A stretch of DNA of 44,802 nt from Candidatus Limnocylindrales bacterium (GCA_038320305.1 JBBQEC010000001.1:1-44802), one strand, 5' to 3'; counted from the first letter of the stretch, positions 40,896 through 43,598 are shown. Numbers and translations: made by a program. Notes: a model not told the origin generated them from the letters alone.

Positions 40896-41966
40896 ATGCT
40901 GTCGCTGACCGGATATTTCACCAACATGCTGAAGCTGATCCGACCGCCGAAGGCCCGTCGCGACCTGGCCGACACGCTGCCTGACGACGTTCGCGACCAC
41001 CTCGCCAAGTGCGACCAGCTGAAAACAGCCGTCGACGCTCCCGTGACGCGGCTGGCCGGTTCCTTCGGCCGTCACACCGGGCAGGGCGACATCCACGACG
41101 TCGACATCCTCGTCTTCGTCGACGCGAGTTATGCCGACCAGGACCCGGCAGTCGTCCTTGACGACCTCGCGGAGGCGCTGCGTGATCTCGAAGTCGACGG
41201 CTATGGCACGGGCGAGATCAAGACAGCGCGCAAGAACCGGCGCTCGCACCACGTTGAGTTCAAAAAGGACGGCGAAGCCGCATTTCACATCGACGTCGTG
41301 CCCGTCGTTCGCCCCGGCGACGACCCCGATGCAGTCTTGTTGATCCCTGACCGCGAATGGGTCGCGTGGGATGACACACAGCCTCTCGGCTACGGCACGC
41401 GCTTGGTCGAGCTCAACAAGGCCAACGAGCTCAAGGTAAAGAAGACGATCAAGCTCATGAAGCGCATCCGCGAGCGCCACCTGCGCACCAGCTTGAAGCG
41501 CCCGAAGAGCTATTGGCTTGAGAGCAAGGTGTACGAGCTCTGGCGCGACGGCCGACTCTCGAAAGACGCGTCACTGGCCGATCTCATGTACCAGCTTCTG
41601 AACGCGATTCGCAGCGATTGCGGCCAGACCAGGCTGGCCATCTACGACCCTTGCCTGGGGCGCGACCTGACCGAGAGCTGGGAACAGGCCGAGTACGACG
41701 AATTCGTCGAGATGCTCGACAAGGTGATCGGGTACCTCGAACCCATTGCGTACGAGGCGGACGCCGACACTGCGGTCGAGGCGTGGCGCAAGGTCTTCGG
41801 CGCAGACGTTTTCCGGCTCGACAGCGACGTGGAGCAGGAGACGAAGAAGGCCGCCGCAGCGCTTGCGGCCGGAGCCACGGTCGCCCGGAGCGGTCTGGTC
41901 GTGCCGGCCAGCTCCGGCGTGGCAGGAACGACATCACCGTCGCACAGCTTCTACGGCGAGGACTGA
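40896..41966 (+). CDS. CD-NTase / SMODS-family cyclic oligonucleotide synthase (CBASS cyclase)
   Basis: 356 aa. Pol-beta NTase motif 'LAGSFGRHTGQGDIHDVDILVFV' (G55-S56, D68-x-D70). Third acidic residue in 'HIDVVPV' (D133). Helical 'KKTIKLMKRIRERHL...SYWLESKV'. Long Ala/Gly-rich C-terminal tail ending SHSFYGED. Confidence 0.8.
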   Translation: MLSLTGYFTNMLKLIRPPKARRDLADTLPDDVRDHLAKCDQLKTAVDAPVTRLAGSFGRHTGQGDIHDVDILVFVDASYADQDPAVVLDDLAEALRDLEVDGYGTGEIKTARKNRRSHHVEFKKDGEAAFHIDVVPVVRPGDDPDAVLLIPDREWVAWDDTQPLGYGTRLVELNKANELKVKKTIKLMKRIRERHLRTSLKRPKSYWLESKVYELWRDGRLSKDASLADLMYQLLNAIRSDCGQTRLAIYDPCLGRDLTESWEQAEYDEFVEMLDKVIGYLEPIAYEADADTAVEAWRKVFGADVFRLDSDVEQETKKAAAALAAGATVARSGLVVPASSGVAGTTSPSHSFYGED

Positions 41967-42021
41967 CACGGCCGGCCGGTGGGCGACACAGCGACTCACG
42001 CCCGGCCAGCAGATCCTCGAG

Positions 42022-42438
42022 ATGCAGCGCCGATTCCCGACGCTACACCTCGTTGGCCGAAGTCCGTTGGCCTGGCAGGGCGACATCGAACCGAGCGAAT
42101 CAGGTCGCGCTTTCACGCTCCATGTCGAGATCCGCGGCGGCCGCGCTCCGCGCGTGCTGGTGCTTTCGCCCAAGCTCGAGAACGACCCGCAGACCGGTCG
42201 CCCGCCGCACACGTTCGGCGACCGTTCGCTGTGTCTCTATCACGTGAGCGAGTTCATCTGGACAGGCAAGGAAAGCGTCGCGTCCACAATCGTCCCGTGG
42301 GCGTGCGAGTGGTGCTGGTACTACGAACATTGGGAGGAGACCGGTCGCTGGCTCGGGCCTGAGTTCGAGCACACCGCACCGAAACGGCGTGACACGCGCT
42401 TCGACGATGACCGGGCGTCGCGGCGGTCAGCCGCATGA
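42022..42438 (+). CDS. stand-alone prokaryotic E2 (UBC-fold)-like protein (Cap2-short-like)
   Basis: 138 codons from the first canonical start. The upstream in-frame sequence 'RLTPGQQILE' also looks like part of the N-terminal helix, so the start is uncertain. The core 'PPHTFGDRSLCLYHVSEFIWTGKESVASTIVPW' mimics HPN...C...W of E2 enzymes. ATGA-coupled to the next gene. Confidence 0.55.
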   Translation: MQRRFPTLHLVGRSPLAWQGDIEPSESGRAFTLHVEIRGGRAPRVLVLSPKLENDPQTGRPPHTFGDRSLCLYHVSEFIWTGKESVASTIVPWACEWCWYYEHWEETGRWLGPEFEHTAPKRRDTRFDDDRASRRSAA

Positions 42439-43598
42439 CCAGACCTATCGAGTATTTCCTCAGTCATCAGCACGACGCACGCGACGCGGTGATTAAGCTC
42501 GAAACGGCCATGCGACGACGCGGGTTGGCATCGTGGCGCGACAGGAAGAACCTAGCGCCAGGAGACGAGACGGGGGCGATCGTCGAACGCGCCATTCGCG
42601 ACGAGACGAGCGGCTTCGTTCTATACGGCAGCCGACACCTCGAGCACAGTAGTTTCGTCTGGAAGAACGAGTGGCAGTTGGCCGTTGAGCGCCGCCGACG
42701 TGAAGTCGCCGCGGGTTGCCCAGCGCCGTACCGACTCTCGCCGCTGTTCGTGGACGGAGTGAGCGCGTCTAACCTCGGCAGCTTCGCGCAAGAGCACGGC
42801 CAGTCATCGGCAGACATTGCCAACGGGGAATACGTGGCGAGCGACGACCGCGCCGACGGTGAGCGCGTCGCGCGCGCTCTTCTCTCGTCGGCTCTCGCCG
42901 ATCGCGCGACCCAGCACCAGCGTCCGATCCGAATTCATCTGACGACGTTCGCCGCGCGTGCGGACGTCGACGCCGACGTTCTCGTCGATTGGCGACCAGA
43001 GGTCGAGGGCGGCTTCGACGCGTCGGAGCTCGTTACTGCTCGTGACGATCTGCGCGACGCGCTGGCGTCGCTTGGCCGTCCGATCGAGGTCGACGCTCAG
43101 GCGCGCCTGCCGGTGGCATTCATGTTCGGCCAAGCCTTTCCTCTGGCAAGCCGAATCGATGTCACGGCGATCCATCGCGATGGCGAGCGTTGGCGCATGA
43201 TCCGCGACGCCGACGTGTCGTCCGTCTCGCTTTTCGACGACTCGATCCCAGGCGGTGACCCGTCGGTCGCTGCGGTCGAGGTTTCACTGGCTCGATCGGT
43301 GGCGACCGCGGCCGACCTGGTCCTCGCTCAGAGCGATATGTCCATCGGTCGACGCGTGCAGATCGGCTTCGCAGCCGGTACGAGCGCTGTTGACCGGACC
43401 GTTGCGGGTGCCGCCGCCGCTGTCTTCGGCCAGTCCCTGCGCAGGTTGCGAGACGACGGCTTCAGCCACGTGCATGTATTCATGGCCGTTCCTGCCGCAC
43501 TCGCTGTCTTGCTTGGAGCGTCCATTAGTGCCGGACCTATATTGAGTCTATGGACGAGCACGGGCGCGCGCGTCGTCACGGCTGCCGCACAAGCCTGA
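42435..43598 (+). CDS. TIR-SAVED effector
   Basis: 387 aa. N-terminal TIR-like 'YFLSHQHDARDAVIKLETAMRRRGLASWRDRKNLAPGDETGAIVERAIRDETSGFVLYGSRHLEHSSFVWKNEWQLA'. The C-terminal ~230 aa end with 'FSHVHVFMAVPAALAVLLGASIS', which is SAVED-like. Confidence 0.8.
   Translation: MTRPIEYFLSHQHDARDAVIKLETAMRRRGLASWRDRKNLAPGDETGAIVERAIRDETSGFVLYGSRHLEHSSFVWKNEWQLAVERRRREVAAGCPAPYRLSPLFVDGVSASNLGSFAQEHGQSSADIANGEYVASDDRADGERVARALLSSALADRATQHQRPIRIHLTTFAARADVDADVLVDWRPEVEGGFDASELVTARDDLRDALASLGRPIEVDAQARLPVAFMFGQAFPLASRIDVTAIHRDGERWRMIRDADVSSVSLFDDSIPGGDPSVAAVEVSLARSVATAADLVLAQSDMSIGRRVQIGFAAGTSAVDRTVAGAAAAVFGQSLRRLRDDGFSHVHVFMAVPAALAVLLGASISAGPILSLWTSTGARVVTAAAQA

Follow-up and report, generated by a model that had tools for sequence, protein, structure and literature searches.

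A 44,802-bp contig of a Candidatus Limnocylindrales bacterium (GCA_038320305.1, JBBQEC010000001.1:1-44802) carries, at positions 40896 to 43598, three plus-strand open reading frames (ORFs) that raise the question of whether this genome encodes a cyclic-oligonucleotide-based antiphage signaling system (CBASS) of the E2-only kind, with a stand-alone E2-like protein but neither an E1 nor a JAB protein. The window analyzed here is the entire contig; it ends 1.2 kb past the effector gene, and nothing beyond 44802 can be read. We are confident that the locus is an E2-CBASS (type II "short" CBASS) made up of three co-transcribed genes and acting as an abortive-infection cassette with an NADase effector, its chemistry, signal, and phenotype being assigned by homology. 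The class assignment draws on family membership and folds, on catalytic residues, and on the order of the genes and the conservation of the cassette. The initial annotation of the region as an E2-only CBASS with an NADase effector and no E1 or JAB is in agreement with the family, fold, and comparative evidence, and the three tightly packed plus-strand genes that it described are all present, at 40896-41966, 42022-42438, and 42435-43598. The features of the cassette are as follows.

40896..41966, plus strand: CD-NTase (CBASS cyclase), 356 aa; SMODS, PADLOC Cyclase, and invariant catalytic residues
41955..41957, plus strand: codon of Gly354, the predicted conjugation site, with Glu and Asp as the next two codons; homolog alignment and correspondence to the Serratia protein
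41968..42438, plus strand: E2 of the E2-CBASS family, full homologous coding region of 156 codons; PADLOC E2, PF26395, 8hsb_B, and AlphaFold2/Foldseek
42208..42234, plus strand: E2 catalytic His63 (42208-42210) and Cys71 (42232-42234), numbered in the 138-aa protein; alignment
42370-42372 and 42382-42384, plus strand: His117 and Lys121 of the E2 C-terminal tail, numbered in the 138-aa protein; alignment
42435..43598, plus strand: TIR-SAVED effector, 387 aa; TIR_2, SAVED, PADLOC SAVED_TIR, and AlphaFold2/Foldseek

A CBASS is recognized by a cyclase bearing the GS...DxD...D set and an adjacent effector bearing a cyclic-nucleotide sensor domain, and the locus has both. The cyclase matched Pfam SMODS (E = 1.7e-12) and the PADLOC oligonucleotide cyclase profiles (best E = 8.1e-44), and G55, S56, D68, D70, and D133 were invariant in an alignment of 28 cyclase homologs. 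These results bear out the Pol-beta nucleotidyltransferase signature and the CD-NTase layout noted initially. The NCBIfam cyclase equivalogs were matched by the window cyclase only below their cut-offs. When the cyclase family profile was searched against all PDB sequences, it matched Bacillus cereus BcCdnD (9SA4, E = 2.2e-35), Pseudomonas PaCdnD (6P8U, 6P82, and 6P8J, E = 1.7e-24), Enterobacter EcCdnD (7LJL, 7D48, and 7TO3, E ~1e-22, best 2.5e-22), and EcCdnC (6P80, E = 3.2e-13), and none of the clade G structures (SmCdnG and BdCdnG) matched at E ≤ 0.01. By profile match, without a formal phylogeny, the cyclase therefore appears closest to the clade D cyclic-trinucleotide synthases, not to clade G.

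BcCdnD, PaCdnD, and EcCdnC make cyclic tri-adenylate (cA3), and EcCdnD makes cyclic AMP-AMP-GMP (cAAG) (PMC13424991). Our best guess for the window enzyme is a cyclic trinucleotide of the cA3/cAAG type, and an effector of the cA3-type TIR-SAVED kind fits a cyclase whose nearest relatives are clade D cyclic-trinucleotide synthases. The XGSX motif of the cyclase reads AGSF, with Thr161 at the lid-1 position and Tyr166 at lid-2. Clade G supplies 74% of E2-CBASS cyclases (PMC12948482), a common but not defining feature of the class that this cyclase does not share; a clade-D-like cyclase with an E2 is therefore a minority pairing, not a new one.

The cyclase also carries a C-terminus suited to such an E2. 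Past the BcCdnD-aligned core lies a conserved extension of ~50 residues that ends in FYG354-E-D, and Gly354 was invariant and followed by 1 to 5 residues in all of the homologs (28/28). E2-CBASS cyclases dock their E2 through a C-terminal helix and a three-stranded sheet, for which this extension is the candidate counterpart in the window enzyme. In Serratia cGAS, which ends in Y405-G406-E407, the E2 removes the residues C-terminal to Gly406 and conjugates Gly406 (bioRxiv 10.1101/2022.05.25.493364), tail removal having been demonstrated with C-terminal fusions to maltose-binding protein and green fluorescent protein. Gly354-Glu-Asp of the window cyclase corresponds to G406-E407 of this protein. 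In a natural cyclase-E2 fusion of 503 aa (P0079), the two domains are joined directly past the Gly motif (RFHGG).

What distinguishes an E2-CBASS was likewise found: a stand-alone E2 with a Cys and a protease His, no E1 or JAB, and a cyclase with a Gly and a short tail. The E2 is 138 to 156 aa long, depending on its start, and has no E1 domain. The 138-aa product matched PADLOC E2 (best E = 6.4e-33) and, by phmmer, the solved Serratia E2 (8hsb_B, E = 4.8e-8). Pfam PF26395 was precomputed on an identical database protein, and the family is labelled E2-CBASS in the context tables of the relatives; our local Pfam copy gave no match for the window E2. In the alignment with SmE2, the His of "PPHTF" and the Cys of "LCL" fall on its catalytic residues (H87 and C101, numbering of the paper), and His117 falls on H152. 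The UBC-like core with its His..Cys..Trp spacing, described in the initial annotation, was recovered through the PADLOC E2 and 8hsb_B matches and the motif PPHTFGDRSLCLYHVSEFIW. A word-indexed search with the E2 returned only the E2 itself, and its family was recovered by an exhaustive HMMER search (1182 cluster representatives at E ≤ 1e-3). Two Trp residues were invariant across 60 aligned E2 homologs, as were the His and Cys of "PPH...LCL". An H-x3-K tail motif (His117 and Lys121) is common to the window E2 and its close homologs, and Lys121 is a candidate isopeptide acceptor. The AlphaFold2 model of the E2, built from the translation starting at 41983, had a predicted local distance difference test score (pLDDT) of 90.9, and its sole significant Foldseek matches were 8hsb_B and 8yjy_B, both CdnG-bound SmE2 (E ~1e-6, TM 0.66-0.71). 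Weak matches to UFC1, UEV, and RWD domains came next, all of them UBC folds, so the protein passed the structural check proposed for it.

The product of 42435-43598 combines an N-terminal TIR domain that has a catalytic Glu with a C-terminal SAVED domain, and its whole-protein fold is like that of 7QQK. It matched TIR_2 (E = 5.8e-8), SAVED (E = 1.2e-16), and PADLOC SAVED_TIR (E = 1.5e-41), with the TIR domain at approximately residues 1-135 and the SAVED domain at approximately residues 140-375, and its ATG and the stop codon of the E2 gene share a 4-nt overlap (ATGA). Pfam, PADLOC, and Foldseek thus agree with the ATGA coupling, TIR-like N-terminus, and SAVED C-terminus first proposed, and the profile matches sought as a check on the cyclase and SAVED assignments were both significant (SMODS, 1.7e-12; SAVED, 1.2e-16; and PADLOC). 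Glu79, encoded at 42669-42671, was invariant in 17 homologs and aligned with Glu84 of the TIR-SAVED protein from Microbacterium ketosireducens (Mke), whose E84Q mutant is catalytically dead (bioRxiv 10.1101/2022.05.04.490601). The AlphaFold2 model of the effector (pLDDT 86.6) had the cA3-bound 7qqk_A as its top Foldseek match, over the full length (E = 1.4e-17, TMq 0.71, 20% identity, 408 aligned columns). The cyclic-trinucleotide receptors AbCap4, MoCap4, and EcCap4 came next, above cyclic-dinucleotide SAVED proteins such as Cap5. In sequence searches, the effector family profile matched MoCap4 (9.2e-10), 7qqk (8e-9), and several catalytic TIR domains.

Relatives of the cyclase were 35 to 75% identical to it and came almost all from metagenomes; in the species-representative genome set, all seven matches (7/7) were Chloroflexota metagenome-assembled genomes, one of them labelled Thermomicrobiales. 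Wherever the flanks were readable (loci L001-L003, L004/L005, L006, L010, L014, L016, L017, and L018 and the P0018 contig), the unit consisted of the cyclase, an E2 of 135 to 171 aa, and a (TIR-)SAVED effector, in this order. The neighbors of the cassette in these relatives were unrelated and included helicases, type I restriction-modification genes, a transposase, and toxin-antitoxin genes; the unusual extended gene context once attributed to the window locus is thus not part of the conserved unit. Neither an E1 nor a JAB gene was found in the approximately 10 related loci with readable flanks, and PADLOC gave no E1/JAB match among the 28 other ORFs of the window. The E2-only classification is therefore well supported, and the search for an E1 or JAB gene beside the cassette, which had been suggested as a way to refute it, came back empty up to the window end at 44802. 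Because the contig ends 1.2 kb past the effector, the lack of these genes further downstream is read from the relatives, not directly. Two of the related cassettes contain split genes. In L006, the TIR-SAVED gene (11020-12183) is split into ORFs of 50 and 326 aa, and in L014, from a bin based on Oxford Nanopore reads, the cyclase (7959-9075) is split into two overlapping ORFs; these splits represent either decay or assembly error in the E2-CBASS cassette family.

The best-supported mechanism for the locus joins the published E2-CBASS mechanism to the published TIR-SAVED mechanism. The CD-NTase would be held in check and primed by its partner E2, which, as a Cys/His protease-ligase, would trim Glu355-Asp356 after Gly354. 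A Gly354-Cys71 thioester would form, and the cyclase C-terminus would then be passed to a lysine, either Lys121 in the tail of the E2 itself or one on other cyclase molecules. Upon phage infection, the cyclase would make its cyclic oligonucleotide signal, for which a trinucleotide of the cA3/cAAG type is most likely, and this signal would bind the SAVED domain of TIR-SAVED. Binding would lead to head-to-tail oligomerization into a filament with composite TIR active sites around Glu79, where NAD+ would be hydrolyzed, and the infected cell would stop growing or die.

Upstream of the cassette, one gene recalls a known control module of CBASS.

39607..40188, minus strand: short M78 (ImmA/IrrE-type) metallopeptidase, divergent from the operon; Peptidase_M78 and PADLOC capP

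The encoded protein (193 aa) matched Peptidase_M78 (E = 1.8e-9) and PADLOC capP (E = 3.4e-10), the latter only over profile positions 5-119 of 242, which is the peptidase half, and it also matched the 175-aa M78 protein beside the L017 E2-CBASS (E = 1.5e-6). Pairs of an XRE-type helix-turn-helix (HTH) gene and an M78 gene lie directly upstream of the cyclase in L014 (6253-7680, minus strand), L017 (4982-5900, minus strand), and L018 (4777-5881, plus strand). Since the M78 peptidases of these loci span 175 to 314 aa, short CapP-like forms exist. True CapP consists of a peptidase, an HTH, and a GAF domain in ~288 aa and acts with an adjacent HTH repressor, CapH (PMC13228613). The window protein does not have this architecture, no GAF domain being detected in it, and no CapH gene adjoins it: neither an HTH gene nor a capH remnant was found on either strand of 40189-40895 by six-frame reading or by tblastn with the HTH partners of L014, L017, and L018. 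The window M78 may be a remnant or variant of a CapH/CapP-type control module, its link to the CBASS being uncertain.

Two small plus-strand ORFs and a perfect 10-bp palindrome occupy the ~700 bp that separate the M78 gene from the cyclase. ORF 40380-40579 has a strong Shine-Dalgarno (SD) sequence and encodes two copies of an S-G-R-F-V...K...A...R...P...TT motif, for which there was no Pfam or NCBIfam family; its frame changes past the first GRFV, at GTAAG near 40424, and one extra A would give a continuous 66-aa protein. ORF 40616-40822, directly upstream of the cyclase and absent from the related cassettes, encodes 68 aa after a strong AAGGAG SD sequence, with a C2H2-like N-terminus (CPLC-x12-H-x4-H) followed by two hydrophobic helices. 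The inverted repeat (40272-40298, TGTCGTGACA-N7-TGTCACGACA) lies between the M78 gene and the small ORFs and could be an operator. A copy of its motif matching at 9 of 10 positions is found at 43711-43720, directly past the effector gene; the motif was not enriched over shuffled sequences. Promoter and terminator scans gave counts equal to the shuffled expectation, repeats flanking the cassette were at chance level, and the intergenic RNA fold was not unusual (z = 0.46).

Other genes close to the cassette are treated as neighbors in a defense-rich region, not as parts of the system. Downstream, 80 nt past the effector, ORF 43679-44539 (plus strand) is PD-(D/E)xK nuclease-like (PADLOC REase_II, E = 1.8e-13); it had no Pfam match, a PDB sequence search was uninformative, and no methyltransferase was visible near it before the contig end. 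A terminator-like hairpin at 43730-43751 falls inside its 5' end if a TTG start is used. On the other side, 38456-39612 (plus strand) encodes an extracytoplasmic function (ECF)-type sigma-70 factor with region 2 and region 4 matches, followed by an overlapping ORF of ~195 aa that has no family match and converges on the M78 gene with a 6-nt overlap. At 2889-11047, recF, dnaN, and dnaA (minus strand), followed by rnpA-like, yidC, and jag genes (plus strand), form a chromosomal origin cluster, which places the CBASS ~30 kb from oriC and on a chromosome, not on a plasmid or phage. Beyond the origin genes, an HTH_3-M78 fusion at 21613-22719 (minus strand) matched PADLOC PD-Lambda-2_B (E = 1.7e-46), and other ORFs of the window matched PDC-S16 (1.3e-31) and mad3 (6.6e-26), which suggests that this is a defense-rich, variable region. 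A 2282-aa RHS-repeat protein encoded at 25511-32359 (plus strand; RHS_repeat and DUF6531) is probably a polymorphic toxin. The window contains no tRNA genes or Rfam matches.

Several observations weigh against the assignment of the locus as a working E2-CBASS. The contig stops 1.2 kb downstream of the TIR-SAVED gene. In clades C and D, a His or a Gln at lid-2 serves to predict whether cA3 or cAAG is made, but the window cyclase has Tyr166 there, so its product cannot be confidently read from these motifs. At the C-terminus of TIR-SAVED, the final ~15 residues depart from the family consensus and were modelled with low confidence; in MkeTIR-SAVED, R388 and W394 are important close to the corresponding region (bioRxiv 10.1101/2022.05.04.490601). 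A frameshift behind this divergence was rejected, since no alternative frame encodes the consensus. Finally, where L015, L001, L004, and L006 have ATG as the conserved E2 start codon, the window has ACG (41968-41970), and a start at ATG 42022 would drop most of the predicted helix α1 (residues 7-17 of the 41983-start translation in the model), so that the E2 is possibly under-expressed or impaired.

The homology of the window E2 begins 5' of ATG 42022. The frame there reads AGRWATQRLTPGQQILE and aligns residue for residue with MAGRWKRQRLTPGQQIFE, the E2 N-terminus of the closest relative, L015, whose cyclase is 75% identical to that of the window, and a BLASTP alignment against P0037 runs 11 residues upstream of the window Met (42022). 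The initial placement of the E2 at 42022-42438 was thus right as to the gene but not as to its beginning, the coding homology starting upstream, at ACG 41968. The E2 genes of the relatives start with an ATG that overlaps the stop codon of the cyclase gene (TGATG or TAATG), and their products carry 14 to 24 extra N-terminal residues; in the window, the ACG lies 1 nt past the cyclase stop and 5 nt after an SD-like GAGGA. ATG 42022 is the first canonical in-frame start and yields the 138-aa annotated product. No SD-like sequence precedes it, and no ATG, GTG, or TTG occurs in frame between it and the TTG at 41863. A start at GTG 41979, combined with a one-base frameshift in the homopolymer of GTGGGC, was considered and dropped, as the frame is continuous against L015 and the homologous start is ACG 41968. 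Because the conserved start codon is an ACG, the E2 in this genome is probably poorly made or N-terminally shortened, with three possible outcomes: an inefficient near-cognate start or reinitiation, a 138-aa protein without α1, or a wrong base call. As a caution for annotation, the 138-aa gene call leaves out a conserved N-terminal helix.

The loss of the E2 start could mean that the cassette is decaying or attenuated, with little or no functional E2, an unprimed cyclase, and weak or no defense. ACG stands where four relatives have ATG; the only other canonical in-frame start before ATG 42022 is the TTG at 41863, deep in the cyclase gene; and ATG 42022 itself, without an SD-like sequence, would cost the protein helix α1. 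Such cassettes do decay, as the apparent frame break in ORF 40380-40579 and the split effector in L006 indicate. However, the cyclase and TIR-SAVED ORFs are full length and retain all catalytic residues, and the E2 frame is open and conserved upstream of the Met. The GAGGA before the ACG is well spaced, which makes near-cognate initiation or termination-reinitiation possible; the equivalent Met is the called start of a database homolog as well (P0038, 122 aa); and a T-to-C assembly error at the start codon is possible. We regard decay of the cassette as rather unlikely.

The system could also be larger than three genes, with the M78 peptidase, the ECF-type sigma pair (38456-39612), the small ORFs (40380-40822), and the nuclease (43679-44539) serving as regulators or as a second effector. 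These genes lie within ~2.5 kb of the cassette, several of them on the same strand with short gaps, the divergent intergenic region holds a perfect palindrome, HTH-M78 (CapH/CapP-like) pairs stand directly upstream of the cyclase in three related loci, and the window M78 resembles that of L017. We nevertheless find this reading improbable: no flanking gene accompanies the cassette in the closer relatives L001, L004, L006, L015, and L016 and the P0018 contig, the M78 lacks both an HTH partner at the expected place and the GAF portion of CapP, Pfam and PADLOC show neither SAVED nor any other nucleotide sensor in the nuclease, and the palindrome motif is not enriched. That the locus might be an ordinary type II CBASS, with Cap2 (E1-E2) and Cap3 (JAB) beyond the contig end, follows from the early stop of the contig, but the window E2 stands alone, belongs to the E2-CBASS family, and has the protease His residues found specifically in E2-only systems, the next genes are the nuclease and a convergent ORF, and neither the 28 other window ORFs nor the ~10 related cassettes include an E1 or JAB gene; we hold this to be extremely unlikely. 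Two further proposals are highly improbable. In one, the ACG would be functional, the E2 being made only through near-cognate initiation or through reinitiation by ribosomes that have just terminated on the cyclase gene, and a deliberately low E2:cyclase ratio would tune priming. In the other, the short M78 without CapH and the ECF sigma pair would form a new CBASS switch. An E2-CBASS of three genes thus stays our reading of the locus.

Known systems offer close points of comparison. The Serratia marcescens E2-CBASS (SmCdnG-SmE2) has been studied by cryo-electron microscopy (PDB 8HSB and 8YJY; Yan et al., bioRxiv 10.1101/2022.05.25.493364; Xiao et al. 2026, PMC12948482), and its E2 trims the cyclase tail and links the C-terminal Gly to its Cys and then to a Lys (bioRxiv 10.1101/2022.05.25.493364; PMC12948482). 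With structures and a worked-out mechanism now published for E2-CBASS, the earlier remark that the E2-only form is much less studied is outdated. The window locus shares with this system a stand-alone E2 of the same family (E = 4.8e-8, TM 0.66-0.71) with conserved catalytic His and Cys, tail His, and tail Lys, a cyclase with a C-terminal extension ending in Tyr-Gly and a short removable tail (YGE in Serratia and YGED in the window), and the lack of E1 and JAB. By contrast, its cyclase is clade-D-like instead of clade G and shorter (356 versus ~407 aa, with a shorter extension), its effector is a TIR-SAVED, its signal is likely a cyclic trinucleotide instead of cyclic GMP-AMP (cGAMP), and its E2 start is non-canonical. 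BcCdnD (9SA4) and PaCdnD (6P8J), clade D CD-NTases that make 3'3'3'-cA3 (PMC13424991), resemble the window cyclase in that the core is compact and has no large inserted loop, the catalytic motif is of the DVDI type, and the lid-1 Thr is conserved (T161 in the window). They are paired with Cap2/Cap3 or HORMA/TRIP13 regulators, not with a stand-alone E2, and the window enzyme differs in its AGSF motif, a lid-2 Tyr166 instead of His, and its Gly-terminated, putatively E2-docking tail.

The effector has the two-domain architecture and fold of the Mke TIR-SAVED protein, whose cA3-bound structure was solved by cryo-electron microscopy (7QQK; Hogrel et al., bioRxiv 10.1101/2022.05.04.490601), with the catalytic Glu aligned (E79 in the window and E84 in Mke), and by homology a cyclic trinucleotide is expected to activate it through filament formation, with hydrolysis of NAD+. 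The Mke protein, however, comes from a type II-C CBASS that also includes a ubiquitin-like modification system and has NucC as a second effector, and the window protein is 46 residues shorter and divergent at its extreme C-terminus. As in the CapH/CapP transcriptional control module of CBASS (Lau et al., bioRxiv 10.1101/2022.04.27.489752; PMC13228613), an M78 zinc-metallopeptidase gene is divergent from the window cyclase, and L014, L017, and L018 hold HTH-M78 pairs at this place, but the window protein (≤193 aa) matches the peptidase half of the capP profile only, with no GAF domain and no adjacent HTH (CapH) detected.

E2-CBASS has been counted in 616 genomes and structurally characterized, and type II CBASS systems commonly use TIR-SAVED effectors (2025 preprint). 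The locus is therefore a further member of an established class and, since that class is already classified and biochemically studied, it is less distinctive than the initial annotation held when naming it the best candidate for a distinctive system. Of modest interest are the pairing of a clade-D-like cyclase and a stand-alone E2, the loss of the E2 start codon, and an orphan short M78 peptidase. The locus leaves the current understanding of CBASS unchanged. To E2-only CBASS it adds a chromosomal, high-GC example located near oriC, from a lineage with relatives found nearly always in Chloroflexota metagenome bins. Its cyclase appears to be clade-D-like and is combined with a TIR-SAVED effector of the cA3 type, whereas clade G cGAMP synthases are present in the E2-CBASS systems studied so far. 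If expressed, the locus would test whether the "trim, thioester, isopeptide" mechanism of the E2 extends beyond CdnG.

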